Below are positions 39,959 through 61,253 of a stretch of 64,000 nucleotides of DNA, in pieces. Source of the DNA: an uncultured Chloroflexia bacterium. Its GTDB lineage: Bacteria; Chloroflexota; Limnocylindria; QHBO01. The notes below the pieces were generated by a model. It had not been told where the DNA came from. It ran no database searches and was given only the letters and a program-made list of their open reading frames with translations. Positions within the stretch are counted from its first letter, which is position 1, and each line of letters opens with the position of its first letter. The stretch is taken from positions 170,226 to 234,225 of the forward strand of contig CAWJIR010000009.1 of assembly GCA_963843015.1 (NCBI GenBank), in the 5' to 3' direction. The translations under genes and the position numbers were made by a program.

Positions 39959-40003
39959 GGGTCATACAGCGTACCCGCTCGAATGGGGTAGGGTTCAAGG
40001 GCC

Positions 40004-42135
<2,132 letters not shown>

Positions 42136-42164
42136 GACTCGGGTCGTCCAGAGGCGCTGACCAG

Positions 42165-42940: not shown

Positions 42941-42975
42941 TCCCCCCGGCCCCGACCCGAGGATTCCAGCACGTC

Positions 42976-45066
42976 ATGAGCTCCTGGTTCAGCCGTACGG
43001 CCGCCGCGTATCGCGCGCAGGCCCACGCCCTCCGTCGCCTCCGCCCGACCCCGCTCGGCCTGCTCGTTCGCGTCCTCCTATCCGTGGTTTCCGCGTGGTT
43101 GAGCCTGCTGATCACGATCGCCCTCGCGCCGGGCATCGAGCGGGAGCCGGGGACCTCGGTCCTGCTGGCGGTCGCCGTCATCGGGGCGGCGGACTTCCTC
43201 ATCCGGCCGCTCCTTCTGGCGGCCGTCCTGCCCATCGGCTTCATCGCGGTCTTCGCGGTCGGCTTCCTGTACCGCGCGGCTTCGTTCTTCTTCATCCTGC
43301 CGCTCCTCGGCTTCGATCTCGGCGGATTCGGGAGCGCGGTGGTGGGGGCCGGGATCTACGCCCTGGTCAGCACGATCTTCGGCGGCCTGGTGGGCATGAC
43401 CGACGACGAGTCGTACGGCCAGCGGGTCGTCAACCAGGTCATCAAGGACCAGGAGAAGGTTCCCCACAGCGACGTGCCCGGGGTGGTCGTGATCCAGGTC
43501 GACGGCCTCGCGTTCCCGCTCCTGGTGGCTCAGGTCCGCTCGGGCACCCTCTCCACGCTGTCGCGATGGATCCGATCAGGCTCGCACCGGATGATGGAGT
43601 ACACCGCCGACCTCCCGTCCCAGACCTCCACCGGGCAGGCCGGCCTGCTCCACGGCAACGCCGCCGGCATCCCCGCCTTCCGCTGGTACGAGAAGGAGCG
43701 GCGGCGAATGATGGTCTCCAACCGCCCCGCCGACGCCGCCGAGATCGAGGCCCGCCTCAGCGATGGCAACGGGCTCTTGGCCAACGGCGGCGCATCGATC
43801 GACAACATGTTCTCCGGCGACGCCACCCACGTCCGAATGGTGATGAGCAAGCTGAACAGCAACCTGGACAAGGCCGGCCGCGATCGGAGCATGTACTACT
43901 TCCTGCTCAACCCGTACAGCATCGGTCGGACCATCGTCCGCACCGCTCGGCGAGATCCTGAAGGAGCTGTACCAGGGCTGGCAGCAGCGGCGGCGGGGGA
44001 TCGAGCCGCGGATGCACCGCGGCCTGAAGTTCGCCGGCCTGCGGGCCACTACCAACGTCGTCCTCCGCGACCTGAACCACGCCCTCGTCGCCGAGCAGAT
44101 GCTGCGCGGGACGCCGGTGATGTACTGCGACTTCGTGGACTACGACGACATCGCCCATCACACCGGGCCGGAGCGGCAGGAAGCCCTCCAGTCGCTGGCC
44201 GGGATCGACCGCTCCATCGGTCGCCTGGAGCGGATGGTGCCCGACTGTCCGCGACCGTACCGCTTCGTGATCGTCTCCGACCATGGCCAGAGCCAGGGGG
44301 CGACGTTCCGCCAGCGATACGGGGTAGACGATCGAGGACTGGCTTCGCACCCGAATCGGCGCGGACGTCACGCGCACGGCGACCGCGCCGGTGGAGGACG
44401 CGGGTCGCCTCTCGACCGTCCTGACCGAGGCCAGCTCCGCCGACGGCGCAACTGCCGCCCTCAGCCGTCGCGCCCTCGAAGGCAGCATGGACGACGGCGC
44501 GGTCGAGCTGGGCGCGCTCGGTGACGAGGTGGCCGAGGAGCCGACCGGCGAGCTGCCCGATCTCGTCGTCTGCGCGTCGGGCAACCTGGGGCTGGTCTAC
44601 TTCGGGGTCGCCGAACATCGCATGTCGTTGCCCGAGATCGAGGCCGCCTTCCCGGGCATGATGGACGAGCTCGTCGCCCACGAAGGCATCGGCTTCGCGC
44701 TCGTCCGATCCGGGGACGGCCATCGCCCTGGCCATCGGCCCGAACGGCCGCCACGACCTGTCGGACGGGAGCGTGACCGGCGTCGATCCGGTCGCCCAGT
44801 TCGGCCCCGACGCACCCGACCAGCTGCGCCACCTCGACGGCATCGACCACGTCGGCGACCTTGTCCTGATCAGCCGGCTCGACACCGGCACCGACGAGGT
44901 GGCCGCCTTCGAGGAGCTCATCGGCAGCCACGGCGGGATGGGTGGATGGCAGACCCAGCCGTGCCTGGTCTATCCCGCGGATTGGCCGGCGCCCGATGGG
45001 CGCCTGATGGGCGCCCCGGCCGTCCACCGGCAGCTGAAGCGCTGGATCGCCGCCGAGCAGGGATAG
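42976..45066 (+). CDS. Fusion protein: N-terminal 4-TM holin-like (phage-holin-4/DUF360-type) domain + alkaline-phosphatase-superfamily phosphodiesterase/pyrophosphatase domain (frameshifted)
   Basis: Transmembrane region LLVRVLLSVVSAWLSLLITIALAPGI...VLLAVAVIGAADFLIRPLLLAAVLPIGFIAVFAVGFLYRAASFFFILPLL...AVVGAGIYALVSTIFGGLV. Then ...VVVIQVDGLAFPLL...EYTADLPSQTSTGQAGLLHGN (metal-ligand Thr/Ser region of the AlkP core) and ...YCDFVDYDDIAHHTGPE...FVIVSDHGQSQG.... Confidence 0.6.
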
Positions 45067-45073
45067 GGGGCCG

Positions 45074-46129
45074 GTGGGCATCTTCGACGGCGTCCTCGGC
45101 ATCTTCAGCCACGACCTGGGGATCGATCTCGGAACGGCCAACACCCTGGTCACCGTCCGCCATCGCGGGATCGTCATCAGCGAGCCGTCGGTGGTGGCCA
45201 TGGAGACGCGCTCGAAGCGGGTCCTCGCCATCGGCGCCGAGGCGAAGCGGATGGTCGGTCGGACGCCGGCCAACATCGTCGCCATCCGGCCCCTGCGCGA
45301 CGGGGTGATCAGCGACTTCGACGTGACCGAGCAGATGATCCGGTACTTCATCGAGAAGGTGCACGACCGCTACTTCCGGATCCCGCGGCCCCGGGTCCTG
45401 GTCGGCATCCCGTCCGGCGTGACCGAGGTCGAGAAGCGAGCGGTGCGCGACGCCACCCTCAATGCCCACGCCCGCTGGGCTCGTCTCATCGAGGAGCCGA
45501 TGGCCGCCGCCATCGGCGCCGGCCTGCCGGTCAGCGAGCCATCAGGGTCGCTCATCGTCGACATCGGAGGTGGAACCACCGAGGTTGCGGTCATCTCGCT
45601 CGGCGGCATCGTCGTCAGTCGATCGATCCGGATCGGCGGGGACGAGATGGACCAGGACATCGTCAACTTCGCCCGCCGCGAGTACAACCTGCTGATGGGC
45701 GAGCGGACGGCGGAGGAGATCAAGATCGCCGTCGGCTCGGCGTACCCCGACCTCGACCCGCGGACCGTGACCTTCCGCGGCCGCGACCTGCTGACCGGAC
45801 TCCCGCGCAGCGTGGAGGTGAGCAGCGACCAGATCCGTGAAGCGCTGGAGCCGTCCGTGGCCGCGATCATCCAGGCCATCCGCGACACGATCGAGGAAAC
45901 GCCGCCCGAACTGGTGGCGGACATCATGGACCAGGGGATCGTGCTGGCCGGTGGCGGCGCTCTGCTGGCCGGGCTCGACCGTCGGGTGGCCGAGACGACC
46001 CAGATGCCGGTCCACGTCGCTGATGATCCCCTGACCTGCGTCGTGCGCGGGACGGGCCGGGTGCTGGAAGAGCTCGACACCCTGGAGCGGGTGCTCATCA
46101 CCGAGCAGTACACCCGCGCCCCCCGATAG
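45074..46129 (+). CDS. mreB: Rod shape-determining protein MreB
   Basis: ...DLGIDLGTANTLVTVRHRGIVISEPSVVAME...IRPLRDGVISDFDVTEQMIRYFIEKV...LIEEPMAAAIGAGLPVSEPSGSLIVDIGGGTTEVAVISLGGIV...GIVLAGGGALLAGLDRRVAETTQMPVHVADDPLTCVVRGTGRVLEE is intact and colinear with MreB. Confidence 0.95.
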   Translation: MGIFDGVLGIFSHDLGIDLGTANTLVTVRHRGIVISEPSVVAMETRSKRVLAIGAEAKRMVGRTPANIVAIRPLRDGVISDFDVTEQMIRYFIEKVHDRYFRIPRPRVLVGIPSGVTEVEKRAVRDATLNAHARWARLIEEPMAAAIGAGLPVSEPSGSLIVDIGGGTTEVAVISLGGIVVSRSIRIGGDEMDQDIVNFARREYNLLMGERTAEEIKIAVGSAYPDLDPRTVTFRGRDLLTGLPRSVEVSSDQIREALEPSVAAIIQAIRDTIEETPPELVADIMDQGIVLAGGGALLAGLDRRVAETTQMPVHVADDPLTCVVRGTGRVLEELDTLERVLITEQYTRAPR

Positions 46130-46136
46130 GCCGGGC

Positions 46137-47018
46137 ATGCGCCTGTCCTCGCTGCAGCCTGGTCGCCACACCTCGAGCCCGCACCGCCGCACCGGGCATG
46201 GGATCTGGTGGGCCGTCCTGCTCCTCGTGTCGCTCGGACTGGTCGTCGTCTCGGGAACGGATCCTGCCCGGTCCGTCCAGGAGCTCGGCGCCCGGGCGAT
46301 GGCCCCGGTCCATGCCGCGGTCAGCAGCATCGGAAGGGGGATCGCCGACGTCGTCGGGACGATCGGCGCAATCGGTCAGCTCCGCGCCGAGAACGACGAG
46401 CTGCGGAGCACCCTGGCCGCCGCGGAGCAGCGCATCGCCGAGCTCCAGGAGGCGGCGCGCGAGAATGCGCGGCTGCGGGCCCTCCTCGGCCTGCGCGCCG
46501 TCCTGGGCTGGGATCTGCTGCCGGCACGAGTGGTCGCGGTGGGGACCGGGGCCCTGACCTGGGAGGTGGCGATCGACGCCGGTCGGGACGATGGCGTCGC
46601 GGTGGGCATGCCGGTGATCGGGGCCGCCCCGGGCGGCGGCGCGCTGGCCGGCATGGTCGTCGAGGCCCGCAGCGATCGGGCCATCGTTCTGCTCACCGTT
46701 GACCCGCGAAGTCGAGTCGTCGCCCGGGACCAGGAGACCGACGCGCTCGGCGTGGTCCAGGGCCAGCCGGGTGGTCAGCTGGTCATGACCCAGGTCGCCG
46801 TCACCGACGAAGCCGCGGTCGGCGACACGATCGTCACCGCCGGGCTGGAGATCGAAGGGGTGGCCGCCTCTCCGTACCCGGCGGGGCTGCTCATCGGAAC
46901 CGTATCCGCTCTCGAGACCGATGCGAACGGTCTGACCCGGACGGTGTTCGTCCGCCCGGCTCTGGATCCCCGTGCCGTCGAATGGCTGATGGTGGTTCGG
47001 TCCGCGACGATCGACTGA
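46137..47018 (+). CDS. mreC: Rod shape-determining protein MreC
   Basis: N-terminal transmembrane segment; coiled-coil segment LRAENDELRSTLAAAEQRIAELQEAARENARLRALLGL; C-terminal beta-domain ...GMPVIGAAPGGGALAGMVVEARSDRAIVLLTVDPRSRVVARDQETDALGVVQGQPGGQLVM...GLLIGTV. It follows mreB immediately. Confidence 0.85.
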   Translation: MRLSSLQPGRHTSSPHRRTGHGIWWAVLLLVSLGLVVVSGTDPARSVQELGARAMAPVHAAVSSIGRGIADVVGTIGAIGQLRAENDELRSTLAAAEQRIAELQEAARENARLRALLGLRAVLGWDLLPARVVAVGTGALTWEVAIDAGRDDGVAVGMPVIGAAPGGGALAGMVVEARSDRAIVLLTVDPRSRVVARDQETDALGVVQGQPGGQLVMTQVAVTDEAAVGDTIVTAGLEIEGVAASPYPAGLLIGTVSALETDANGLTRTVFVRPALDPRAVEWLMVVRSATID

Positions 47019-47173: not shown

Positions 47174-49477
47174 TTGCACGAGCGAACGCTGCTCAGTCCT
47201 TGGCGCCTGGCCCTCTTGCTTGCGGTCGCCTTTGCGCTCGCCGTAACCGCGATTCTCGGACCACTCCCGGTTCGTGCTGCGGCGACCCAGAAGGTGGTCG
47301 TCATCGTCGGCCCGGTGGGGGGCGGCTCGATCCAGACCAACTACCTCAACCGCGGCGAGCAGATCGCTGCCTCGGCCGAAGCCCGTGGGGCCACGGTCGT
47401 GCGCGTGTTCTCGCCGAACGCGACCTGGGCGGCGGCCCGTGCGGCGGCCAACGGGGCCAACATCATCGTCTACATCGGGCACGGCAGCGGCTACCCGAAC
47501 CCGTACGCCGCGAACAACCAGCCGGCCTACAACAACGGCTGGGGACTGAACAAGATCGCGGGCGCCGATTCCGCCGACCCGACGGGCCACGGCCACGGCA
47601 TCAACAGCCAGATGGTCTATTGCGGCGAGGCCGCGTTGCAAGGCCAGGCGCTGCCTGCCGGAACCGCCACCGCGGCCTACTGCTCGCCTGGGCCCATCAC
47701 GCCCGCGCCGGGCTTCGTGATGGTGTACTCGAACGCCTGCTACGCGCCGGGCGCCGGCGAGACGGAGGAGAGCACCCCGAGCAGCGAGGGGACGGCCCTC
47801 ACCCGCGTGAACTACTACTCGCGACCGATCCTCGCGCTCGGGGGCTCGTATTTCGCAAGTGACCTGGGCGCGCGTTCGGTGGTGGAGGCAATCCTCGACC
47901 ACCCGACCTCCAGCCTGGGCGACATCTTCGAGATGGGCACCGGCTATAGCCCGACTGCCATCCGCCACTTCCCGCACTGGTTTACCAGCGGCGCGGAGGC
48001 CTGGATCCAGAGGACCGTGGGCGTAGGTGGGCTCATGAGCTACTGGTACGCGTTCGCCGGGAACCCGAACCAGATGCCGCAGGCTGGCCCGCCCAACGCC
48101 GACTTCACCGCCTCGCCAACCGCCGGCCTGCTGCAGCTCACGGTCTCGTTCTTCAACGAGACCGCGACCTATGGTTCAACCACCTACACATGGGATTTTG
48201 ACGCCAACGGCTCGGTCGACTCCACCGCCCAGTCCCCGGTGTGGTCCTACCCCACGGCAGGCACCTACTCGGTGACGATGACGGCGACGAACAGCCTGGG
48301 CACCGATGTCGTGACCCGGACGAACTACATCACCGTTCGAACCCCGGTGCCGGGCACCTATGTCCCGCTCCCGCCCGCCCGCCTGCTCGACACGCGGGCG
48401 GGCAACGGCCTGAGTGGGGCGTTCAGCGCGAACGTGCCGCGGACGTTCCAGGTCGCGGGGCGGGGCGGAGTCCCGGCCAACGCGGTCGCTGTCACGGGCA
48501 ACCTGACGGTCACCAACCAGGGCTCGGCCGGCTACGCGTACCTGGGTCCCGACCCGGTCATCGGTCCGACCAGCTCGACCATCAACTTCCCCGCTGGTGA
48601 CACCCGGGCCAACGGCGTGACCGTGGCACTCGGCCCCGGCGGAACGCTGGCCGCAACGCTCGGTCCGGGAATGGCGGGCGGCGCCGATCTCCTGTTCGAC
48701 GTGACCGGCTACTTCCTGCCCGGCAGCGCGCAGGGGACCTACGTTCCGCTGGCCCCCGCCCGTCTGCTCGATACCCGTGATGGCACCGGCCTGAGCGGGC
48801 CGTTCGCCGCGAACACGCCGCGTGCCTTCCAGGTTGCCGGGCTCGGCGGCGTCCCGGCCGGTGCGGTGGCCGTGACCGGCAACCTGACCGTCACCGGACA
48901 GAGCGGCGGCGGCTATGTCTATCTCGGTCCCGATCAGGTCGCCAACCCCTCCAGCTCGACGCTGAACTTCCCGGCCGGCGACAGCCGTGCCAACGGTGTG
49001 ACTGTTGCGCTCGGGCCAGGGGGAACGCTGGCGGCCACGCTCGGCGTCCCGGGCACGACCCACCTCCTGTTCGACGTGACTGGCTACTTCGTGACCGACG
49101 GATCGGGCGCGACCTACGTCGCCCTCTCACCGTCTCGCCTGCTCGACACCCGGGTGGGCAACGGCCTGAGTGGGCCGTTCAGCGCGAACAACCCGCGGTC
49201 CTACCAGGTCCACGGCCGTGGCGGCGTGCCGGCCACTGCGGTGGCGGTCACCGGCAACCTGACGGTGACCGGCCAGAGCGGCGCGGGCTACACCTACCTT
49301 GGTCCGGATCCGGTCGCCAACCCGACCAGCTCGACCCTGAACTTCCCTGCCGGGGACACGCGGGCCAACGGGGCCACCGTGGCTCTGGGTGCGGGCGGGA
49401 CCCTGGCCGCGACCCTCGCCCTGACCGGAAGCACGCACCTCGTGTACGACGTGACCGGCTACTTCTACATGGACTGA
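47174..49477 (+). CDS. Secreted multidomain protein: putative clan-CD (gingipain/clostripain-like) cysteine peptidase domain + PKD domain + three diverged ~120-aa C-terminal repeats of unassigned type
   Basis: Signal peptide LLSPWRLALLLAVAFALAVTAILGPLPVRAAA (TTG start). N-domain with NIIVYIGHGSGYPNPY ... FVMVYSNACYAPGAG has the His-Gly and Ala-Cys dyad spacing typical of the caspase-fold clan CD. PKD-like segment WDFDANGSVDSTAQSPVWSYPTAGTYSVTMTATNSLGTDVVTRTNYITV. Three repeats each start TYVPL.P.RLLDTR.G.GLSG.F.AN.PR.FQV.G.GGVPA.AVAVTGNLTVT.QSG.GY.YLGPD....P.SST.NFPAGD.RANG.TVALG.GGTLAATL......LLFDVTGYF. Confidence 0.6.
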   Translation: MHERTLLSPWRLALLLAVAFALAVTAILGPLPVRAAATQKVVVIVGPVGGGSIQTNYLNRGEQIAASAEARGATVVRVFSPNATWAAARAAANGANIIVYIGHGSGYPNPYAANNQPAYNNGWGLNKIAGADSADPTGHGHGINSQMVYCGEAALQGQALPAGTATAAYCSPGPITPAPGFVMVYSNACYAPGAGETEESTPSSEGTALTRVNYYSRPILALGGSYFASDLGARSVVEAILDHPTSSLGDIFEMGTGYSPTAIRHFPHWFTSGAEAWIQRTVGVGGLMSYWYAFAGNPNQMPQAGPPNADFTASPTAGLLQLTVSFFNETATYGSTTYTWDFDANGSVDSTAQSPVWSYPTAGTYSVTMTATNSLGTDVVTRTNYITVRTPVPGTYVPLPPARLLDTRAGNGLSGAFSANVPRTFQVAGRGGVPANAVAVTGNLTVTNQGSAGYAYLGPDPVIGPTSSTINFPAGDTRANGVTVALGPGGTLAATLGPGMAGGADLLFDVTGYFLPGSAQGTYVPLAPARLLDTRDGTGLSGPFAANTPRAFQVAGLGGVPAGAVAVTGNLTVTGQSGGGYVYLGPDQVANPSSSTLNFPAGDSRANGVTVALGPGGTLAATLGVPGTTHLLFDVTGYFVTDGSGATYVALSPSRLLDTRVGNGLSGPFSANNPRSYQVHGRGGVPATAVAVTGNLTVTGQSGAGYTYLGPDPVANPTSSTLNFPAGDTRANGATVALGAGGTLAATLALTGSTHLVYDVTGYFYMD

Positions 49478-49605
49478 CGCTCTGGGGGTGGTCCGCGGCC
49501 AATTAGTACCATGGGTCCGGGCCGCGGTGGTCGGTAGGGTGTGGCCTGCTGGAGTCTAGGGCGGTTGGCGCGTCCCGGACCCGCAGACTCGAGGCCATCG
49601 CCCGC

Positions 49606-52600
49606 GTGAACCGCTTCAGGCTCCCCGCTCACTTCGCCCTCGCCGTTGTTCTGCTCATCGGTGCGCCGTCGAGCCTGTCACCGGCACTCGCGACCGAACC
49701 GACGACCGCCCGACCCGGCGCGTCTGGGACCGACTGGTCCATTCCGCCGGCTCTCCCCGACGGACCAATCACGCTGCCGAGCGGCGAGGTCCTGCCGCCG
49801 ATGCCCGATGAGTTCGAGGTCCCGGGCATCCAGGCCGAGATGCTCGCCCAGCATGCGGACGACGCGCCGACACTCGCAGCGGGCGCCCAACCCGGCGCGG
49901 CTGGCACCGGGTCTCCGAGCGTTCCCCCCGGCAACTCGACGGTCGCCAACCCAGAGCAGTTACTGGCGGCTCCAAGCGGCGGGTTCGCCGCATTGCCGAA
50001 CGGCCTGCGCAAGGAAGTGTTCGGGTTCCTGCCGTACTGGATGCTGGCCGATTCCAAGCTCCAGTGGATGCGCTACGACCTGGTGTCGACGATCGCGTAC
50101 TTCGGCGTGGCGGCCGGCAGCGATGGAACGCCTGGCGACGGCTTCGACGGGCTGGAACGGCTGGACATCGTCGGCCATGACCGGGGTCATCAACGCGGCC
50201 CATGCTCACGGCGTCCGGGTGGTGCTGACCGTGACGATGATGGCCTGGGATGGTGGCGCCGCCCAGGCCGCCCTCCTCGCCGACGCGGCTGCACGGGCTC
50301 GACTCGTCAACGCCATCGTGGCGGCCGTCCGGGATCGGAGCGCGGACGGGGTGAACCTCGACTTCGAGCCGGTCTACGTGCCGCAGCGGGACCAGTACAC
50401 GTCTTTCGTCCGGCAGCTCAAGGCGGCGCTCGTCGCGGCCGGCGTGGGGTCGTACCTGACGGTTTGCACGACCGGCGGAGCTGCGAGCTGGGCGACCGGC
50501 TATGACCTCGCGGGGCTCGTGGCCCCCGGCGCCGCCGACAGCATCTTCGTGATGGGCTACGACTACAGCTGGTCGGGCTCTGCGCGGGCGGGTGGCGTGG
50601 CGCCGATGGAGTCGCCGTACATGCTCGACGTCAGCCAGTCGGTCGATGACTACCTGCGCCGCGTGCCCGCCATCCAAGCTCATCTGGGGCGTTCCCTACT
50701 ACGGCCGAGCCTGGCGAACGACCTCCGACGCGCTGAACGCCGCGACCGTACCCGGCGCATCCGCGTCATCGGTGGCCTACTACTACGTCGGCAACCAGGT
50801 CCTGCCAGGCCCAGCATGGGCGCCGATGGGACGCGGTCGGCCAGGTGCCCTGGTTCGCGTACTACGACAGCGTTGCCGGATCGTGGGTCGAGGGCTACTA
50901 CGACGACGTCCAGTCCCTGGCGGTGAAATGGGACATGGTCAACCAGCGTGGCCTGGCGGGCACGGGGATCTGGGCCCTGCTCATGGACGAGGGCAGCAGC
51001 GACCTGTGGAACCTGCTCGCCACGAAGTTCGTCTCGGATGTCGCGCCGCCGACCGGCGGCATCGTGCCGCTGCCGGCGGGAACGGACGCCTCCGGCGTCG
51101 GCGTGTCCTGGCGCCACCTCGACATCGGCTCTGGGGTCGGTTCGTACACGGTGCAGGTTCGCGATCGCGCGGGCGGCGAATGGACGTCCTGGCAGACCGA
51201 TGTCAGCTGGACGTCGGCCCACTTCGTGGGGACCGAAGGCCATTCCTACGAGTTTCGGGTCTCGGCCGTGGATATGGTCGGCAACCGCCAGCCGTGGACG
51301 CCAGCGGCGCTCGACGTCAGCTCGAGCCTCCAGGTCGGCGGGTTCGCGGGGGTGAACGTCGGGGTCCTGAACGTCCGGTCCGGGACGGGCACGGGATTCG
51401 CCGTGCTCGACCAGCTGGCGGCGGGTGACCGGCTCGCGATTCTCGGCGGCCCGGTGCTGGCCGGCGGACTGCAGTGGTACTGGGTCCAGTTCGACTGGAC
51501 CGAATGGCCATCGTCGTCGTTCCCGCGGTATGGCTGGGCAGCCGCCGGCGACGCGAGTGGTCCCTTCCTCGTGCCGGCGCCGGCCCCGACGGTCACCACG
51601 ATCAGCCCAGCCATCTCCGGGTACGCCGTGAGTCCGCGGCGCATCTCGCCAAACGGGGACGGGACCGCCGAGAGCACCGCGGTCACCTTCTCGCTGGCCG
51701 CCGCGGCCAGCGATGCCCGCCTCGACGTGATCAATGGCGGCGGCACGGTGGTCGCGAGCCAGGCCCTCGGTCCCCTCGCACCCGGCACGCAAGCCGTTTC
51801 CTGGGATGGCCGCGCGGCCGGTGCCCCGGTCGCCGACGGTGTGTACCTGCTCCGCCTCACGGTGGTCGACGGTGCCGGGTCCCACGTCGCGCCGGTGGCG
51901 GGGGTCGACTGGAGCGCGCTGTCGACGTGGGGCGTCGTCGCGAGCGTGACGCCGCCGGGCGCGACCTACATCCCGCTCGCCCCCTCTCGCCTCCTCGACA
52001 CCCGGGTCGGCAACGGCCTGGCCGGGACGTTCGCGGCGGGCACCCCGCGCACGTTCCAGGTCGCCGGCCGGGGCGGGGTCCCGGCCAACGCGGTGGGCGT
52101 GACCGGCACCCTGACCGCCACCGGCTCGAGCGGCCCCGGCTTCGTGTTCCTCGGTCCCGATCCGACGGCCACCCCGACGAGCTCGACCTTGAACGTGCCG
52201 GCGGGGGACACCCGGGCGGGCGGGGTGACGGTGGCCCTCGGCCCGGGCGGGACCCTGAGCGCGACCTTCGGCTACACCGGGACGACCCACCTCCTGTTCG
52301 ACGTGACCGGCTACTTCGTGCCCGATGCCAGCGGCGCGACCTACATCCCGCTCGCCCCCTCTCGCCTCCTCGACACCCGGGTCGGCAACGGCCTGTCCGG
52401 GACGTTCGCGGCGGGCACCCCGCGCACGTTCCAGGTCGCCGGCCGGGGCGGGGTCCCGGCCAACGCGGTGGGCGTGACCGGCACCCTGACCGCCACCGGC
52501 TCGAGCGGCCCCGGCTTCGTGTTCCTCGGTCCCGATCCGACGGCCACCCCGACGAGCTCGACCTTGAACGTGCCGGCGGGGGACACCCGGGCGGGCGGGG

Positions 52601-53076
52601 TGACGGTGGCCCTCGGCCCGGGCGGGACCTTGAGCGCGACCTTCGGCTACACCGGGACGACCCACCTCCTGTTCGACGTGACCGGCTACTTCGTGCCCGA
52701 TGCCAGCGGCGCGACCTACATCCCGCTCGCCCCCTCTCGCCTCCTCGACACCCGGGTCGGCAACGGCCTGTCCGGGACGTTCGCGGCGGGCACCCCGCGC
52801 ACGTTCCAGGTCGCCGGCCGGGGCGGGGTCCCGGCCAACGCGGTGGGCGTGACCGGCACCCTGACCGCCACCGGCTCGAGCGGCCCCGGCTTCGTGTTCC
52901 TCGGTCCCGATCCGACGGCCACCCCGACGAGCTCGACCTTGAACGTGCCGGCGGGGGACACCCGGGCGGGCGGGGTGACGGTGGCCCTCGGCCCGGGCGG
53001 GACCCTGAGCGCGACCTTCGGCTACACCGGGACGACCCACCTCCTGTTCGACGTGACCGGCTACTTCGTGCCCTGA
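49606..53076 (+). CDS. Secreted multidomain protein: GH18-like domain + Fn3-like + SH3b-like + FlgD-Ig-like domains + three near-identical 125-aa C-terminal repeats of the same type as in the preceding gene (GH18 part frameshifted)
   Basis: Signal peptide MNRFRLPAHFALAVVLLIGAPSSLSPALA. GH18-like segment ...EVFGFLPYWMLAD...YDLVSTIAYFG... ...VNAAHAHGVRVVLTV...ADGVNLDFEPV (D-x-x-N-x-D-x-E variant of the GH18 catalytic motif) ...IFVMGYDYSW...YYGRAW... ...GIWALLMDEGS. Then VSWRHLDIGSGVGSYTVQVRD...EWTSWQTDVSWTSAHFVGTEGHSYEFRVSAVDMVGNRQ (Fn3-like); NVRSGTGTGFAVLDQLAAGDRLAILGG.VLAGGLQWYWVQ (SH3b-like); ISPNGDGTAESTAVTFSLAAAASDARLDVINGGGTVV...VYLLRLTVVDGAGS (FlgD-Ig-like); then 3 x ([124 protein letters not shown]). 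Confidence 0.6.
51961..53073 (+). repeat. Three head-to-tail copies of a 375-bp coding unit (A 51961-52335, B 52336-52710, C 52711-53073), essentially identical at the DNA level
   Basis: Exact 375-nt periodicity is visible, e.g. gcgacctacatcccgctcgccccctctcgcctcctcgacacccgggtcggcaacggcctg recurs at 51961, 52336 and 52711. I found only two single-base differences among copies (gcc vs tcc in ggcctgGccggg of copy A; ctg vs ttg in gggaccCtgagc of copy B). The identical 81-aa antisense ORFs at 51966, 52341 and 52716 are a by-product of this repeat. Confidence 0.9.
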
Positions 53077-53972
53077 CCACCCTCCAGGACACGACTCCAG
53101 AGCTCCCACATCGCGTCGCGGTAGCGCTGGACGCTGAACCGCGCCGCCGTAGCCGCGACCAGCGCAGGATCGTAGTCGGGCACCACCGCGAGCGCTGCCT
53201 CGTAGGCGCCATCGGTGACGAGGGACCCATTCACCCCATCGGTCACGATTTCCCGCAGCCCTCCGACCGCGGCGGCGACCACCCAGCGCCCTGACGCGAT
53301 CGCCTCCGCGGCGACGAGGCCGTAGGGCTCGACCCTCGACGGAACGAGCACGACGTCGTGGCTCTCCATCAGGGCCGGCACCTCGGCGGGGTCGACCTCC
53401 CGCAGTCCTGGCCCGACGAGCGTATCCGCCAGTCTGGCTGCCACGTCCACCCCTTTCTCCGCCACGTCCCCTCCGAGGTAGAGGACGCGGCGAGGGGACG
53501 GCCGCGGCGTGGGGCGAAAGCGCGCGAGGTCGATACCGGGCGGAATGACTTCCGCCCGACGCCCGAGGCGCTCGACGAGCGCAGCGGTCTCGGGCGAATT
53601 CGCGACCACGGCTGCAGCCGACCGGATCACGGTGCGCGCCAGCCATCGATGGACCGCGGAACGCTGGGCCGCGCTGCGAACGTCCGCGCCATGGGCGTAG
53701 ACGACCAGCGGCAGGCCGCGCAGGCGCGCGGCCAGCAGGGCTGGTGGCCCGCTGGCGAGGACGAAGTGCGCTTCCACACCGTCGAAACGGCCACGGGCGG
53801 TCATCGCCTCCCAGGCCAGCCGCGCGAACCGTCCCCAACGCGAGCCATCGTACCGATGCGGCGCCACGACGGTAGCCCGCAGCCTGGGATCGGCGAGCCG
53901 ATCTCGGACGAATACACCTGCGGCCGGCCGGTCAGCGGTCGGGTAGCGGGTCGTCACCACCAGCAGGCGCAT
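53061..53972 (-). CDS. Glycosyltransferase family 4 (GT-B, GT1-like)
   Basis: [29 protein letters not shown]... ...[15 protein letters not shown]...[48 protein letters not shown] carries the EX7E-type motif. Its stop is convergent with, and overlaps, the end of the 49606 gene. Confidence 0.7.
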
Positions 53973-54007
53973 GGAGCCCGACGGTAGCACGGGTAGAATC
54001 GCGGGCA

Positions 54008-54742
54008 ATGTCGACGATCGCCCCGCCGCGCCGTGCCGACGGACGCCTGCCGAACCAGCTGCGCCCGGTGAAGATCGTGCCCGACTACCTGAAGTTCGCC
54101 GAGGGCTCGGCCCTGATTCGGGTGGGCGATACGCGCGTCCTGTGTGCGGCCACACTCGAGGATCGCGTCCCGCCCTTCCTGCGGGGGAAGGGCACCGGCT
54201 GGGTGACCGCCGAGTACAGCATGCTGCCGCGCGCCGGCACCGAGCGGTCGCAGCGTGAGGCGAGCAAAGGCCGGATCGGCGGCCGGACCCACGAGATCCA
54301 GCGCCTGATCGGACGCTCCCTGCGTTCGGTGGTGGACATGGCCGGCCTCGGCGAACGGAGCCTGACCCTCGACTGCGACGTCATCCAGGCCGATGGCGGG
54401 ACCCGCACCGCGTCCATCACCGGCGCCTACGTGGCCCTCGCCCGCGCCCTCCACAAGTACGGCATGGAGCGGCTGCTGACCGGCCAGGTGGCGGCCGTCA
54501 GCGTCGGGATGTCGGCGAGCGGCCTCCTCCTCGACCTCGACTACGCCGAGGACTCGACCGCGGGGGTGGACTTCAACGTCGTGATGCTCGACGACGGGCG
54601 GTTCGTCGAGATCCAGGGCACCGCGGAGCACATCCCGTTCAGCTCGGACCAGATGACCGAGATGGTCTCCCTCGCCTCCGCCGGCATCCGGCAGCTGTAC
54701 GAGCTCCAGCGCGAGGCGATTGCGGCTCCCGCCGCCGAGTGA
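54008..54742 (+). CDS. rph: Ribonuclease PH
   Basis: ...[101 protein letters not shown]...[27 protein letters not shown] is intact. Confidence 0.9.
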
Positions 54743-55375
54743 GCCGCCTCCTGGTCGCCACCCACAACCCGGGCAAGCTGGCCGAGTTCCAGCGGCTGCT
54801 CAGCGGGCTCGGTGCCGAGGTCGTCAGCGCCGCGGACCTGGGCCTCGACCTCGACGTTCCCGAGCCCCATGACACGTACGCCGAGAACGCCGCCGACAAG
54901 GCGATCGCCTTCTGCCGCGCATCGGGCGAGATCACCCTGGCCGACGACTCGGGCATCGAGGTCGCGGCCCTGGACTGGGGCCCTGGCGTCCGGTCGGCGC
55001 GGTTCGCGGGACCGGATCGGATCACCGGGGCGGACCTGCTCCTCAAACGGCTGGCCGGCGTCGAGCGACCGACGGGCCCGGATGGTCTGCTGGCTTGCGC
55101 TGGCCCAGCCGTCCGACGAGCGGGCCGGCGAACCGACGGTCGAGCTCTTCGCCGGCATGGTCGAGGGCCGCTGTCGCGGATCAGCGGCGGGGGAGCGGCG
55201 GCTTCGGCTACGACCCGGTCTTCGAGCTCCCGGACGGCCGGACCACCGCCGAGCTCGACGACGACGGCAAGGATCTGGTCTCGCACCGGGGACTGGCGGT
55301 CGCGGCGGCCATGCCACGCCTCCGAGAGTTGGTCGCGCGCCACGCTAGAATGCCCGCCATAGCGGAGGACGCATG
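54739..55375 (+). CDS. rdgB: dITP/XTP pyrophosphatase (Ham1 family), frameshifted
   Basis: [91 protein letters not shown]... then ...[10 protein letters not shown].. and ...[39 protein letters not shown] in other frames. Its start overlaps the rph stop. Confidence 0.8.
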
Positions 55376-55977
55376 AACGAGGCCTCGCCCGTGCGCGTCC
55401 ACCCCACCGCCGATGTCTCCGCCGAGGCGAGCATCGGCGCCGGCACCAGCATCTGGAACCAGGCCCAGGTCCGCGAGCGTGCCCGGATCGGGGTGGGCTG
55501 CGTGATCGGCAAGAACGTGTACGTGGACTTCGACGTCGTGGTCGGCGACCGGGTCAAGATCCAGAACAATGCGTCGCTCTACCACGGCGTCACCGTCGAG
55601 GACGGCGTGTTCATCGGTCCGCATGTGTGCTTCACGAACGACCGCCTGCCGCGGGCGGTGAACCCCGATGGATCGGCCAAGACCGACGACGACTGGGAAG
55701 TCGGCCCCATCCGCGTCCGCACCGGTGCGGCCGTGGGGGCCTCGACGCGTCGTCGTTCCGGGCGTGACGATCGGCCGATGGGCGCTGGTGGGTGCCGGCA
55801 GCGTGGTGACCGCCGACGTCGCCGACTACGCGCTCGTGGTCGGCAACCCCGCGCGCCGGATCGGCAGCGCCTGCCCGTGCGGCGAGCCGCTCCGCGACGG
55901 GCCGGACGGGACCGCGTTCCGCGGCGCGTGCCCCAGCTGCGGCCGCCCCTTCCCGCCGCCGGAGGATGCGCTGTGAA
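55373..55977 (+). CDS. Left-handed beta-helix (hexapeptide) sugar N-acetyltransferase, WbpD-like; one frameshift
   Basis: VHPTADVSAEASIGAGTSIWNQAQVRERARIGVGCVIGKNVYVDFDVVVGDRVKIQNNASLYHGVTVEDGVFIGPHVCFTND shows hexapeptide repeats. The C-terminus ...VVPGVTIGRWALVGAGSVVTADVADYALVVGNPARRIG... follows. Confidence 0.65.
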
Positions 55978-57075
55978 GGTCGCTCTCCGTGGTTGGCGCC
56001 CGGCCGCAGTTCGTGAAGGCCGCTCCGGTCAGCCGCCAGCTGCGCACCCGCCATCGCGAAATCCTGGTGCATACCGGGCAGCACTACGACGACGCGATGA
56101 GTGACGTCTTCTTCCGAGACCTCGGCCTGCCGCCGCCCGACCGCGATCTCGGGGTCGGCAGCGGGTCGCACGCGACCCAGACGGCCGAGATGCTGCGTCG
56201 GCTCGAGCCGGTGCTGGTCGATGAGCGTCCTGACGTCGTCCTGCTCTACGGCGACACGAACTCGACCCTGGCCGGCGCCCTGGCGGCCGCCAAGCTCAGC
56301 GACCTGGCCGAGCAACGACCCCTGCTCGCCCACGTAGAGGCCGGTCTCCGCTCATTCAACCCATCCATGCCCGAGGAACGGAACCGGATCGTGGCTGACC
56401 ACCTCTCCGACCTCCTCCTGGCGCCGACCCCGCCAGCCATGGCGAACCTGGCCCGCGAGGGCCTGGCCGATCGGGCCACGCTGGTCGGAGACGTGATGGT
56501 CGACGCGATGGACGCCGCCGTCGAACGGGCGCCCGGCGCGCTGCCACCGGAAGCGCAGGATGCCCCGGGATACGTGCTCCTGACCCTGCATCGGCCGTCG
56601 AACGTCGACGATCCGGTGCGGCTCGGCGCCTGGCTCGCCGCCGCGGCACCAGCCGGACCGGTCGTCTTCCCGGTCCATCCCCGGACGCGCGCGGTGCTCG
56701 ACCGGGCTGGGGTGGCGGTCCCGAGCGGCGGTGACGCTCATGGAGCCGGTCGGCTACCTCACCATGATTGCCCTCGAGCGTGGCGCTCGGGTGATCGCCA
56801 CCGACTCGGGAGGCGTTCAGAAGGAGGCCTACCTGGCCGGCGTTCCCTGCGTGACCCTGCGAAGCGAGACCGAATGGGTCGAGACCATCGAGGCCGGGTG
56901 GAACCGCCTGGCCCCCAACCCCTCGGACCTCGGTCCGGCCCTGGTCGAGGCCGCCGCCACGCCGTCTTCGTTGCCGCGTCCCGCTCTGTATGGGGATGGA
57001 CATGCGGCCGGGCGGATCGTGGATTCCCTCGAGCGGCTGGCGGCTCACCGCGAAGCGGCACCGGTGGCCTCGTGA
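55974..57075 (+). CDS. UDP-N-acetylglucosamine(-uronate) 2-epimerase, non-hydrolysing (WecB/WbpI-like); one frameshift
   Basis: ...[68 protein letters not shown]...[23 protein letters not shown]...[35 protein letters not shown]...[61 protein letters not shown]. Confidence 0.8.
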
Positions 57076-58183
57076 TCCCGATCGCGCAGCCCCAGATCGG
57101 CCCCGAGGAGCAGGCCCTCGTGGCGGAGACGCTCGCGTCCGGCTCGCTGGCCCAGGGCCCCCGCGTCCGCGAGCTCGAGGAGCGCTTCGCGGCCCTGGTC
57201 GGCGTGTCCGCACGCGGTCGCCACCTCCTCGGGGACGACGGCGCTCCATCTCGCCCTGCTGGCCGCCGGCGTCGGGCCCGAGCGACGAGGTCATCACCGT
57301 CCCGTTCACCTTCATGGCCAGCGGCACGAGCATTCTCTATGTCGGGGCCCGGCCGGTCTTCGTCGACGTCGACGCCCGCTCGTTCATGGCGGTCCCGGAT
57401 CGCGATCGAGGCCGCCATCACGCCCCGGACGAAGGCGATCATGCCGGTCAGCCTCTACGGCCAGCCCGCCGACATGCCCGCCATCGAGGCCATCGCCGAG
57501 CAGCACGGCCTGGCGCTCATCGAGGACGCGGCCCAGACCCATGGGGCCTCCATCGACGGACGCGCGTCGGGGAGCTTCGGACAGGGCGTGTTCAGCTTCT
57601 ACCCGACCAAGAACATGACCACCGGCGAGGGCGGCATGATCACGACCGCCGATGGCGCGCATCTCCGAGTGGGCGCGCCTTCGCCGCGAGCACGGGATGA
57701 AGGTGCGCTACCACCACGACGTGCTCGGCTACAACTTCCGGATGAGCGATATCCACGCGGCCATCGGGCTGGCGCAGCTCGACAAGCTGGCCGGCTTCAA
57801 CGACCGCCGGATCGCGACCGCCGCCCGCTACGAGGCCGAGCTCCGCGGCGTGGTCACGCCATGGGTCCGGCCCGGGACGGTCCACGTCTTCCACCAGTAC
57901 ACCATTCGCGTCCTCAAGCGCGACGCGTTCGTCGAGCGCGCTCCGCGAGCGGGGCGTGGGCACCGGGGTCTACTACCCGATCCCGCTGCATCGGCAGAAG
58001 CCGTTCATCGAGCTCGGCTATGGCGACCAGTCGTTCCCGGTCAGCGAGCAGCTGTGCGAGGAGGTCGTCTCCATCCCGGTCCATCCGGGCCTGAGCGACG
58101 CGGACGTGGACACGGTGATCGAGGCCGTGAACGCGGTCGCCACCGAGCTCGGGTCGCATCCGGAGAGCCGGGTCGCGGTATGA
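57072..58183 (+). CDS. DegT/DnrJ/EryC1/StrS-family PLP sugar aminotransferase (WbpE-like), frameshifted several times
   Basis: ...[43 protein letters not shown]...[37 protein letters not shown]...[71 protein letters not shown]...[27 protein letters not shown]...[11 protein letters not shown].... The active-site Lys context is FYPTKN. Confidence 0.8.
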
Positions 58184-59193
58184 GCGGCAGCAGGGCGGGA
58201 GGACCGTCGGCGCGGGCCGCCGTCATCGGCCTCGGGATGATGGGCGCCAACCATGCCCGGGTCCTGAACGAGCTCCCCGAGGTGGACCTCGTGGCGGTGG
58301 CGGATCTCGATCCAGAGGCCGTGGCTCGCGCCACCGCGGGGCGCTCGGCCCGGGGGTACACCGATCCGTCGGCGCTCCTGGCCAACGAGCACCCGGATCT
58401 CGTCGTGGTCGCGGTCCCGACCTCGCTCCACCTGGAGACGACGGTCGAGGCCCTGAGCAGCGGCGCGCACGTCCTGGTCGAGAAGCCGATTGCCGCGACC
58501 CGGAGCGAAGCCGAGGCGATGATCGCGGCCGCCGAGACAGCCGGCCGCATGCTCACCGTCGGCCACATCGAGCGCTTCAACCCGGCCATCCGGGAGCTCA
58601 GCCGACGCCTCGACGCCGGCGAGCTGGGCCGGGTCTTCCAGGTCCGGGCCTCGCGGCTCGGGCCTTTCCCGGCGCGCGTCCGCGACGTCGGGGTCGTCGT
58701 CGACCTCGCTCCCCATGACCTGGACATCATGCGGCTGCTCCTCCATTCGGAGCCGATCCGGATCTACGCCGAGACCGAGCAGCGGATCCACACCGACCAC
58801 GAGGACCTGTTCACCGGGCTGCTGAAGTTCGAGTCCGGAGCGATCGGGCTGCTCGAGATCAACTGGCTGACGCCGACGAAGGTCCGGAAGCTGAGCGTGA
58901 CCGGTGAACGCGGGATGTACGAGGCCGACTACCTGACCCAGGATCTCGTGTTCTACGCCAATCCCGACCAGGTCCTGGTCGCCGAAGGGGAGATGACGCG
59001 GCGCGCGGTCCAGCGCCGGGAGCCGCTCGCGGTGGAGCTGTCGGAGTTCGTCTCCGCCATTCGCCGGGGAGGACCGCCCCCGGTCGACCCCCGGGATGCG
59101 CTGATTGCCATGCTCCTGGCGCGGGCCATGGTGGACTCCGCATTGCGCGGCATCGTCATCGGCGCCGAGGACCTGAGACCGATCCTGGCATGA
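58180..59193 (+). CDS. Gfo/Idh/MocA-family NAD-dependent sugar 3-dehydrogenase (WbpB-like)
   Basis: ...AAVIGLGMMGANHARVLNELPEVDLVAVADLDPEAVARA...VVVAVPTSLHLETTVEALSSGAHVLVEKPIAATRSEAEAMIAAAETAGRMLTVGHIERFNPAIREL... is intact (~337 aa). Confidence 0.75.
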   Translation: MSGSRAGGPSARAAVIGLGMMGANHARVLNELPEVDLVAVADLDPEAVARATAGRSARGYTDPSALLANEHPDLVVVAVPTSLHLETTVEALSSGAHVLVEKPIAATRSEAEAMIAAAETAGRMLTVGHIERFNPAIRELSRRLDAGELGRVFQVRASRLGPFPARVRDVGVVVDLAPHDLDIMRLLLHSEPIRIYAETEQRIHTDHEDLFTGLLKFESGAIGLLEINWLTPTKVRKLSVTGERGMYEADYLTQDLVFYANPDQVLVAEGEMTRRAVQRREPLAVELSEFVSAIRRGGPPPVDPRDALIAMLLARAMVDSALRGIVIGAEDLRPILA

Positions 59194-60465
59194 GGATTGC
59201 CGTTGTCGGGCTTGGGCACATCGGCCTTCCCCTGGCCGTGCAGTACGCGAGCCGCGGCCACGAGGTCATCGGCTGCGACCTGGACGCCCGTGTGGTCGAC
59301 GCCATCAACCGCGGGGAGTCTCCGCACGACGACGAGGCCGAGGTCAGCGAGCAGGTCCCGGCGCTCGTCCGCGAGGGCCGTCTGCGGGCCACCACCGATG
59401 ACGCTGCCGGTGTCCGCGACGCGGAGGTGGTCGTCGTCATCGTGCCGGTCGTCGTGGACGAGGCGCGCCAGGTGGACTTCTCCCAGATCGACGCCGCCAC
59501 CCGTGACCTGGCCCGTGGCCTGTCAGCGGGCACGCTCGTCATTTTCGAGACGACGCTTCCGATCGGCACCACCCGCGATCGGCTGGGCCCGATGCTCGAA
59601 GCCGGATCCGGCCTCCAGGTTGGCCGCGACCTCCAGCTCGCCTTCTCGCCCGAGCGGGTCCTGGTTGGCCGCGTTCTGCTCGACCTGCGGCGCTACCCGA
59701 AGGTCGTCGGTGGGCTGAGCCCGGAGGCGACCGAGCGTGCGGTCGCGTTCTACACCGCCGTCCTCGAGCCGGGAACCGAGATTCGCGCCATGGCCAGTGT
59801 CGAAGCCGCCGAGATGACGAAGCTGGCCGAGACCACCTACCGCGATGTGAACATCGCCCTGGCCAACGAGTTCGCCCAGGTGGCGGACCGCCATGGGATC
59901 GACGTCACCGAGATCATCGCGGCCGCGAACTCCCAGCCATACAGCCACATCCATCAGCCCGGTGTCGGGGTGGGCGGCCATTGCATCCCGGTATATCCCC
60001 ACCTGCTGTTCCACGACGAGCCGACCATGCGCATCCCGCCTCTGGCCCGTGCCGTGAATGACGGCATGGCGGCCTACGCCGTCGGCCACCTCGCCGAGGC
60101 GCTCGGACCGCTGGACGGCGTCGCGGTGCTCGTCCTGGGCATCGGTTACCGAGGAGACGTTCGCGAGGACTTCTTCAGCAGCGCCCTGCTGCTGCGCGAG
60201 GCGCTGGTGGCAGCCGGCGCCACGGTGCACGGCCACGACCCCTACTTCGACGCCGAGCACCTTCTGCGGCGCGGATTCGTCCCGTACGACTTCGCGGCCC
60301 CGGCCCCGGTTCGCGCCGCCATCCTCCAGGCGGCTCACACGGCCTATCAGCGATCTCGATCCGGCCGCGATCCCCGGCCTCGAGGTCCTCGTCGACGGAC
60401 GGAATGCGATGAATCGGGAGCGCATCGAGGCAGCCGGCGTCCGCTACCTCGGAGTCGGCCGCTGA
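59190..60465 (+). CDS. UDP-N-acetyl-D-glucosamine/mannosamine 6-dehydrogenase (nucleotide-sugar dehydrogenase, WbpA/WecC-like); C-terminal frameshift
   Basis: MRIAVVGLGHIGLPLAVQYASRGHEVIGCDLD (Rossmann fold) ...LVIFETTLPIGTTRD...FSPERVLVGRVLLDLRRYPKVVGG...EMTKLAETTYRDVNIALANEFA...GVGVGGHCIPVYP (catalytic Cys)...VLVLGIGYRGDVREDFFSSA... Confidence 0.8.
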
Positions 60466-61253
60466 ACGTGGAGGACCCCGAGCCGACACCGTCGGTCGGT
60501 CTCGCCGCCGGGCGCGGGGTGTGGGTGGTGATCCCGACCTACAACGAGCGCGAGAACCTGACCCGCGTGGTCGAGGCCGCGCTGGCCGCGTTGCCCGAGG
60601 CTCATGTGCTGGTGGTGGATGACCGCTCACCCGACGGGACCGGGGAGCTGGCAGACACGCTCGCCGCCACCAACGCCCGGATCGAAGTCCTCCACCGACC
60701 GGGGAAGGAGGGCCTTGGGGTCGCCTACCGCGACGGGTTCAAACGGGTCCTCGACAAGCCGGGAACGATGGCGGTCGTCCAGATGGACGCCGACCTCAGC
60801 CATGACCCTGCAGACCTGCCCCGCCTCATCGCGCCCCTGATGCGCGACGCGGATCTCGTCCTCGGGACGCGCTGGATGCCCGGTGGCGGCACGGTGGGCT
60901 GGCCATTCCTCCGCCGGATCGTGAGCCGCGGCGGGACCCTCTTCGCTCGAGTCGTCCTGCTGCTGCCCTACCGCGATCTGACCGGCGGCTTCAAGGCATG
61001 GCGCCACGAGCTGCTCGAGGCGATCCGCCTGCGCGAGGCCTCCAGCCAGGGCTATGGCTTCCAGGTGGAGACAACCTGGTGGGCCCACCGCCGTGGTGCG
61101 AAGATCCGCGAGGTCCCGATCATGTTTCGCGAGAGGACGGCGGGGCGCTCGAAGATGTCCGGGTCGATCGTGGCCGAGGCCATCGTTCTCGTGCTTCGCC
61201 TCCGCTGGGGAGCCATCCGCCGACCGTCCCGCCAGCCCCGTGGCGAGCGGTGA
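60466..61253 (+). CDS. GT2 polyprenol-phosphate glycosyltransferase (DPM1/Ppm1/GtrB-like)
   Basis: ...VWVVIPTYNERENLTRVVEAALAALPEAHVLVVDDRSPDGTGELADTLAATNARIEVLHRPGKEGLGVAYRDGFKRVLDK...AVVQMDADLSHDPADLPRLIAPLMRDADLVLGTRWMPGGG. The DxD motif is in QMDAD. Confidence 0.75.

Follow-up and report, generated by a model that had tools for sequence, protein, structure and literature searches.

Background

Two described families of bacterial wall anchor, SLH (PF00395) and CWB2 (PF04122), are made of three tandem repeats that work as one body. SLH repeats are helical, about 55 residues long and recognised by TRAE and GIIxG motifs; the three repeats are related by an approximate threefold symmetry, stand at a protein terminus as a non-catalytic module, occur in many paralogs with varied heads in monoderm bacteria, and bind pyruvylated secondary cell-wall polymers. 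CWB2 is known from the Firmicutes, and in Clostridioides difficile it binds PSII; its repeats are non-identical and not interchangeable, all three are required and do not act as 'beads on a string', and 29 paralogs carry them on protease, peptidoglycan-hydrolase or adhesin heads. The PSII (AP) synthesis locus lies directly downstream of the CWB2 protein genes (PMC4973711). In the predator Bdellovibrio bacteriovorus, the tip of the prey-adhesion fibre Bd2133 has a previously uncharacterised beta-sandwich fold packed as a trimer, which has ions on its threefold axis and, where the subunits meet, a pocket (PMC10769870). In this paper we analyse a stretch of 64,000 nucleotides (nt), referred to as the window, from an uncultured Chloroflexia bacterium of the Limnocylindria (contig CAWJIR010000009.1), in which two adjacent genes for secreted proteins, gene A and gene B, end in three copies of the same repeat unit, here called the triplet.

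The triplet belongs to an unnamed and very large domain family of obligate triplet architecture. We read it, tentatively and with slightly more doubt than belief, as a non-catalytic terminal module that may retain secreted proteins on the bacterial cell surface, most probably by way of a glycan of the producer's wall.

Results

A shared C-terminal triplet

The two genes and their triplets lie as follows.

47174..49477, plus strand: gene A, an intact open reading frame (ORF) of 767 amino acids (aa) with signal peptide, head, PKD domain and triplet
48356..49465, plus strand: gene A triplet, three units with 7-aa linkers; AlphaFold2 (AF2) models were made of unit and triplet
49606..53076, plus strand: gene B, GH18-Fn3-SH3b-FlgD_Ig-triplet, with three +1 frame changes in this assembly
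51964..53067, plus strand: gene B triplet, units at 51964-52317, 52339-52692 and 52714-53067

Each gene ends in three units of 118-120 aa. Those of gene A occupy aa 395-514, 522-639 and 647-764 (nt 48356-48715, 48737-49090 and 49112-49465) and are 77-79% identical in pairwise comparison; Tandem Repeats Finder reports them as a 375-nt period with 2.9 copies and a 75% match. The units of gene B, at aa 374-491, 499-616 and 624-741 of the ORF 50845-53076, are 99-100% identical to one another (375-nt period, 3.0 copies, 99% match), and gene A units match gene B units at 72-77% identity. Unit-against-unit tblastn comparisons give E-values of 1e-49 to 1e-72, so the C-terminal triplet that the genes share cannot be put down to chance, and an earlier note on this DNA, which described a three-copy module common to the two adjacent genes, was right in this respect. 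No further copies of the unit were found when the whole window was searched by tblastn. Every unit has the same polar residues at R9, D12, R14, S74, T75, N77, D113 and Y117 (unit A2 numbering), and N86 varies hardly at all. Both triplets (window 48350-49474 and 51958-53073) are free of Lys and Cys, and all of their positive charge is carried by Arg.

A large family without a profile

The unit matches no model of Pfam-A (2025 copy) or NCBIfam 20.0 at E<=1 and nothing in PHROGs, and a sequence-profile search of the PDB returned noise only (a nanobody at E 0.03, ecotin at E 0.1), which agrees with the earlier note's placement of the unit outside known families. The same negative results apply to actinobacterial members, Pfam having been searched at E<=1 with Streptomyces and Curtobacterium proteins. 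An exhaustive HMMER search over 1.84 billion cluster representatives found 29,864 members of the family at E<=1e-3, 19,628 at E<=1e-10 and 6,906 at E<=1e-30.

The nearest genomic relatives are almost exclusively metagenome-assembled genomes (MAGs) of Candidatus Limnocylindria or other Chloroflexota. Cultured Actinomycetota have the family as well: on plasmids, tblastn found 23 records (Streptomyces 19, Paenarthrobacter 2, Arthrobacter 1, Curtobacterium 1) at 29-39% identity. When a Streptomyces triplet served as query, 2,718 of the 8,000 candidate proteins that were scored matched at E<=1e-5; nearly all of the matches listed are 510-570 aa long, come from Streptomyces chromosomes and plasmids and align over the whole triplet, and most of them bear a PKD domain and are named only 'hypothetical' or 'PKD domain-containing'.

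Matches of 101-207 aa (P0001-P0120) were considered as single-unit proteins and rejected: they start in mid-unit at internal Met codons or contig ends, and represent fragments of longer genes with several repeats. The family is probably under-counted and mis-modelled in metagenomes as a result of repeat collapse and contig breaks. A Paenarthrobacter RHS protein was missed by hmmsearch with default filters, and its three units were recovered with --max (i-Evalues 1e-13 to 2e-9), so divergent members may escape a census with default filters when they stand on long, repetitive proteins.

The rule of three

Among the top 150 representatives, three units are present in 141, six in 7, nine in 1 and five in 1. 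Ranking by total score is biased against proteins of one or two units and not against those of four, five, seven or eight, so the near-absence of the latter is informative. This bias does not affect a set of 75 genomic loci, in which units were counted frameshift-tolerantly in arrays away from the locus ends; here 82 of the 110 arrays have three units. Arrays that depart from three are mostly triplets split by a gap (L028, L043, L073) or probable cases of short-read repeat collapse. Single units at L005:6289-6642 and L010:7186-7545, which have short-read-style contig names, belong to orthologs of the window's gene B and are probably collapsed triplets, because the 99%-identical units of gene B are expected to collapse in such assemblies. 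The module therefore comes mostly in threes, as in the two genes of the earlier note, with some sixes, a nine and a five besides.

Linker length is exactly 7 aa in 234 of 256 cases. Median unit identity is 0.62 within a protein and 0.52 between proteins, whereas units at the same position (0.521) are hardly more alike than units at different positions (0.513), so that a position-specific signal is almost nil. An ancient block of position-specific units is not supported by the latter figures. Similarity within proteins, taken with the near-lack of a position signal, therefore points to concerted evolution with the number fixed at three. Units are at least 95% identical to each other within 8 of 134 proteins, and in Streptomyces, Curtobacterium and Paenarthrobacter the triplet is still kept where identity has fallen to about 30%.

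Predicted fold of unit and triplet

The AF2 model of a single unit, built on a 47-sequence alignment, is all-beta with nine strands (pLDDT 97.2, pTM 0.89). On this model the unit is a beta-jelly-roll, as are CBM6/35/36-type carbohydrate-binding modules (CBMs). The fold class is thus already known, and the possibility of a novel fold raised in the earlier note is refuted by the model and its Foldseek neighbours; no solved family claims the unit. Its nearest solved fold is the Bd2133 prey-adhesion fibre tip, and further neighbours are a trimeric phage cement protein, BclA and OX40L, along with capsid, cement, nucleoplasmin and endospore-appendage proteins.

The gene A triplet (375 residues) was modelled with pLDDT 94.2 and pTM 0.91. 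Three independently moving domains would not be expected to reach a pTM of 0.91, so the triplet is predicted to form one compact body, and the single-chain TNF trimer 4zch_B aligns with the triplet model across 175 residues. The copy-number rule, the 7-aa linkers, concerted evolution and the triplet model, taken together, suggest that the triplet is most likely a single-chain pseudo-trimer that mimics a homotrimer of related jelly-roll tip domains.

A compact body predicted with such high confidence could also be a ligand-free structural module, either a stable terminal cap or an element of lattice formation or oligomerisation (S-layer-like or sheath-like) acting through protein-protein contacts. 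The capsid, cement, nucleoplasmin and endospore-appendage neighbours do self-assemble, and units kept alike by concerted evolution would suit such a part. The invariant polar residues, however, are more suggestive of a motif for binding or for an interface than of a simple cap, no lattice-forming partner was identified, and several differently headed paralogs per genome are better suited to a shared docking site. We consider self-assembly improbable.

Placement and partner domains

In 133 of the top 150 representatives, no more than 10 aa follow the end of the last unit. In most of the remainder the triplet comes directly after the signal peptide and is followed by an M14-like, RCC1, IPT/TIG-like or peptidase-like domain. 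A 'cutinase family' protein of Curtobacterium is built in this way, with the triplet N-terminal and directly behind the signal peptide, and on the conjugative plasmid pB of Paenarthrobacter ureafaciens (L079:8800-13299) a signal peptide and three units (aa 75-447) precede RHS repeats. The C-terminal position reported for genes A and B in the earlier note is therefore usual and not universal, about 10% of the representatives, and the cutinase and RHS proteins, carrying the triplet N-terminally. WapA of Bacillus subtilis has three wall-binding repeats.

By a crude rule, 108 of the 150 representatives have a signal-peptide-like N-terminus. Partner domains are diverse and of kinds typical for secreted or surface proteins: fn3, CarboxypepD_reg, Peptidase_S8, GH18, RCC1, PKD and Ig-like domains, and further SpoIID, CAP, multicopper oxidase, glutaminase, purple acid phosphatase, cutinase, M14-like and RHS toxin domains; many heads are arrays of Ig, Fn3, PKD or beta-propeller domains. 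What the earlier note had seen in two genes, a module that swaps between unrelated heads, is repeated across the family, on S8 protease, GH18, SpoIID, CAP, cutinase and RHS toxin alike. A genome holds at least nine arrays, a lower bound taken from the loci fetched, and two or more arrays are present in 26 of the 75 loci. The module swaps even between orthologs: locus L003 has an ortholog of gene B that shares its head up to the start of the triplet, after which the tail differs and has Big_5 and, in four copies, another repeat of about 70 aa (L003:12960-14285; SFASGSHTGYQF...NGVWAGYWV.ES..V.L). This repeat has no Pfam match and may be a second terminal module of equivalent role.

The GH18 heads of gene B and other members, and the jelly-roll itself, would fit a divergent CBM of the CBM6/35/36 type that concentrates an enzyme on its polysaccharide substrate. 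CBMs occur in single or variable copy number and mostly on carbohydrate-active enzymes; to our knowledge they follow no strict three-copy rule with fixed linkers and are never found as obligate triplets on proteases, oxidases or toxins. The rule of three does not fit such a module, the unit matches no CBM family of Pfam at E<=1, and carbohydrate-active heads are in the minority (the others include S8 protease, CAP, multicopper oxidase, cutinase, M14-like and RHS toxin), which leaves substrate targeting very improbable.

The heads also bear on another account, that of a target-recognition lectin or adhesin. Here the pseudo-trimer would bind external surfaces or glycans, be they those of other bacteria, of fungi, of plant polymers or of soil particles, and direct enzymes, toxins and adhesin arrays to them. 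A prey-adhesion tip as nearest solved fold agrees with this, as do phage and spore-appendage tip or cement proteins and TNF-like trimers among the other neighbours, the RHS polymorphic toxin headed by the module on a conjugative plasmid, the many Ig, Fn3, PKD or beta-propeller array heads, and the PKD-triplet proteins of Streptomyces that have no enzyme part. One gene of the last kind, on a plasmid of Streptomyces sp. NBC_00354 (L077:5680-8262), is directly followed by a gene annotated as 'immunity 49 family protein', an adjacency which may mean that in some actinomycetes the family is tied to polymorphic-toxin or competition systems. The presence of one module on enzymes with unrelated substrates, however, argues for a common ligand that is independent of substrate, and we judge a lectin or adhesin role unlikely.

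The mreBC locus and its glycan genes

The triplet genes of the window are flanked by the following features.

45074-46129, plus strand: mreB (ORF translation; syntenic homologs 81-99% identical)
46137-47018, plus strand: mreC (Pfam MreC at 2.8e-28)
53061..61253, mixed strands: downstream glycan cluster (Pfam and synteny; several genes frame-broken)
53061-54155, minus strand: family 4 glycosyltransferase (GT4; Pfam), first gene of the downstream cluster

After GT4 come the genes for RNase PH (rph) and Ham1 (ham1), and then the plus-strand glycan genes, which encode a hexapeptide acetyltransferase, a UDP-GlcNAc 2-epimerase, a DegT aminotransferase, a GFO/IDH/MocA oxidoreductase, a UDP-sugar dehydrogenase and a GT2. 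Pfam and, for MreB, the ORF translation thereby confirm the flanks described in the earlier note, mreBC on the upstream side and GT4, sugar-pathway genes and GT2 on the downstream side.

About 14 of the 75 loci are the window's locus in other genomes. Synteny is kept in L002-L005, L007, L010, L016, L018, L021 and L068, and in a distant form in L028, L035, L043 and L060, where MreB (where present) is about 81%, MreC 34-36% and the A-like head 31-35% identical to its counterpart. The distant loci have the order (mreB)-mreC, triplet-bearing secreted protein(s), GT2 and Wbp-type genes, and the distance from the last unit to the start of the GT2 gene is about 75-175 nt in L028, L043 and L035. This conserved linkage of mreBC, triplet and GT/Wbp genes is moderate evidence of functional coupling. 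In L018 (9623-16944) the space between mreC and GT4 is taken up by three consecutive triplet genes, of which one is A-like and one GH18 B-like.

The adjacency to mreBC and the link to a wall-glycan cluster, together with heads that act on the producer's own wall (SpoIID, YaaH-like GH18), point to the producer's envelope and not to an outside target, which speaks against a lectin or adhesin. If the target of such a lectin were the cell wall of kin, its ligand would be that of an anchor, and the two readings would merge.

Two other features of the window lie near this locus. Just downstream of the glycan genes, at 61330-62541, is a peptidyl-prolyl isomerase with a SurA_N-like region (a PrsA-like extracytoplasmic foldase), which fits a cell-envelope locus, and a 1387-aa ORF (39798-43961) lies upstream of the mreB region.

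Gene A

47282..48100, plus strand: gene A head, about aa 37-309, without family assignment
48101..48337, plus strand: PKD domain of gene A, aa 310-388 (PF18911 at 1.3e-7, PF00801 at 9.4e-7)

The N-terminus of gene A, MHERTLLSPWRLALLLAVAFALAVTAILGPLPVRAAA, is signal-peptide-like as read directly from the sequence, and the exact protein sequence is already on public record (NCBI, ENA). The PKD domain, which had been noticed before, is the sole Pfam match in the gene. Motifs YIGHGSG and SNACYAPG are visible in the head, which has no match in Pfam, NCBIfam, PHROGs or PDB sequences; the label of clan-CD cysteine peptidase that the earlier note attached to it accordingly has no backing from Pfam, NCBIfam or PDB sequences.

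Gene B and its frame breaks

50050..50990, plus strand: GH18 catalytic region of gene B (PF00704 pieces over three frames)
51088-51300, plus strand: Fn3-like domain (fn3 at 4.6e-4, under the gathering score)
51364-51489, plus strand: SH3b-like domain (SH3_3 at 2e-3, under the gathering score)
51658-51867, plus strand: FlgD_Ig domain (FlgD_ig at 9.7e-11, a solid match)

Gene B likewise begins with a signal-peptide-like sequence, MNRFRLPAHFALAVVLLIGAPSSLSPALA. Its starting frame has stops at 50503, 50647 and 50734, and so 49606-53076, taken as one gene in the earlier note, is not one ORF. There are +1 shifts of the coding frame near 50131, 50666 and 50802, and a frame plot of G+C content at third codon positions changes phase across the gene. 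The intact 1236-aa ortholog in L003 aligns to the window by tblastn in frames 1, 2, 3 and 1, and every frame junction is a single-base insertion relative to L003.

PF00704 matches gene B three times, in the ORFs 49646-50926 (9.8e-16), 50592-51428 (3.3e-4) and 50845-53076 (0.049, under the gathering score), and these matches span successive parts of the profile. The GH18 motif DxxDxDxE reads DGVNLDFE at about 50390-50420, with the catalytic Glu kept and the second Asp replaced by Asn. The profile match and the catalytic motif together identify the head as GH18. Of the domains assigned to gene B in the earlier note, GH18 and FlgD_Ig thus stand, and Fn3 and SH3b remain weak. A related 767-aa protein with GH18 and triplet (P0174) has the JGI name 'spore germination protein YaaH'.

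Gene B is not alone in being broken. Many conserved genes switch frame mid-gene in the window (42346-45308, 49606-50850 and 55373-61253), the gene upstream of mreB is read in three frames, and several ORFs are chimeric: the one at 55989 joins Epimerase_2 to DegT, that at 57652 DegT to GFO/IDH/MocA, and that at 59190 a UDP-sugar dehydrogenase to GT2. The syntenic loci L068, L021 and L018, from 'MFD' MAGs with very long contigs, are broken in a similar manner, whereas the orthologs are intact in L003, which comes from a k127/metaWRAP MAG. The frame breaks of gene B are therefore most likely assembly indels and not gene decay. The pattern resembles long-read indel error. A true pseudogene was considered and is unlikely, as other conserved genes of the window are broken too and the L003 orthologs are intact.

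Discussion

If the triplet is a surface-retention module, it could work as follows. The unit would be a jelly-roll domain that functions only as a set of three, and three tandem units with fixed 7-residue linkers would fold into one compact body. Placed at one end of Sec-secreted proteins, this body would serve for retention or targeting by binding a component of a bacterial cell envelope, for which a glycan in the wall of the producer itself is the most probable candidate. The binding sites would lie on single units or between them. In this way the cell surface would retain enzymes, adhesin-like arrays and toxins, and in the window the two triplets would tether gene A (head and PKD) and gene B (GH18, SH3b- and Ig-like domains). 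We favour an anchor because SLH and CWB2 likewise combine three repeats in one body with many paralogs of varied head, and because the CWB2 genes, which adjoin the synthesis locus of their ligand, are a precedent for the link between triplet and glycan genes.

Several observations weigh against retention at the producer's own wall. The nearest structural neighbour of the unit is a prey-recognition fibre tip and not a self-wall anchor, and the next-best neighbours are substrate-binding CBMs. Pseudo-threefold packing is deduced from model confidence only; three of the five AF2 triplet models scored lower, at pLDDT 77-83, and a structure search with the triplet model found no solved chain with the three-unit arrangement. 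Many Streptomyces members consist of PKD and triplet only and have no enzyme to anchor. The tie to glycan genes drawn in the earlier note, although conserved in syntenic loci down to 81% MreB identity, does not extend to about 50 of the 75 triplet loci, where a search of 10 kb around the triplet gene found no homolog of the tested glycan genes, though a genome would need no more than one such biosynthetic locus. In the window itself rph and ham1 stand between GT4 and the Wbp genes, which counts against the claim of a specific ligand. A Limnocylindria genomics study contains no mention of envelope, cell wall or S-layer. Finally, the module is near-neutral (median isoelectric point 6.6), unlike what is expected for bulk binding to an anionic polymer, and bulk electrostatic binding of this kind is not supported. 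An anionic ManNAc(3NAc)A polymer is therefore not specifically indicated as the cognate ligand proposed in the earlier note.

A more specific form of the wall-anchor reading is possible though doubtful. It holds that the triplet is a third, independently evolved wall anchor of the three-repeat pseudo-trimer type, after SLH and CWB2, which is built of jelly-rolls, occurs in two monoderm soil phyla and displays on the cell wall enzymes as well as adhesins and RHS toxins. On this view it would bind a secondary wall glycan, which Limnocylindria would make with the GT/Wbp (UDP-ManNAc(3NAc)A-type) cluster by mreBC.

Whatever the function, some 30,000 cluster representatives without a Pfam or NCBIfam profile are a gap in annotation. 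Should the triplet prove to be a wall anchor, it would account for the surface retention of a large part of the secreted proteins of two abundant soil phyla, give a function name to thousands of 'hypothetical' and 'PKD domain-containing' proteins of Streptomyces, and open a first way into the study of the envelope in the uncultured Limnocylindria. A third three-repeat anchor working as one body, and an all-beta one, would suggest convergence on pseudo-trimers for binding wall polymers, and in practice the module could tag proteins for surface display in actinomycetes. A direct test of the hypothesis is feasible, since cultured and genetically tractable hosts (Streptomyces, Arthrobacter) carry the triplet.

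Comparison with known systems

Among the jelly-rolls, CBM6, CBM35 and CBM36 differ from the triplet family in that the unit has no match to their sequence families and is not characteristically joined to a carbohydrate-active partner. TNF/C1q-like trimers (the BclA C-terminal domain, OX40L and the engineered scAPRIL-BAFF-BAFF, 4ZCH) are like the predicted triplet in having jelly-roll protomers arranged about a threefold axis at the end of a protein. The tip of the Bd2133 MAT fibre (PDB 8OK3, 8OND) shares with it a C-terminal beta-sandwich and, if the triplet is a pseudo-trimer, the trimeric state. Sequence identity to the unit is only 13-14%, however, and the Bd2133 tip is a true homotrimer of three chains on the beta-helical fibre of a Gram-negative predator, whereas here three copies stand in one chain of globular secreted proteins.

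The triplet shares with SLH and CWB2 the layout of three tandem terminal repeats that form one body, here on the evidence of the model. Like SLH, the triplet is terminal and non-catalytic, is found on many paralogs with varied heads in monoderm bacteria and has an Arg-containing motif in each repeat, RxLD(T/S)R in place of TRAE; its approximate threefold symmetry is suggested by model confidence. Unlike SLH, its unit is all-beta and about 120 residues long, and it has no Pfam match at E<=1. With CWB2 it shares three tandem repeats, many differently headed arrays in one genome and a position beside a putative ligand-synthesis locus, the window triplets adjoining the GT/Wbp cluster. It differs in that window, Streptomyces and Curtobacterium proteins give no CW_binding_2 match at E<=1, that its units are often near-identical with almost no signal of position, and that it occurs in Chloroflexota and Actinomycetota. 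The triplet family thus resembles the known triplet anchors in its apparent working; what sets it apart from them is its fold, how nearly identical its units are and the range of taxa in which it occurs.

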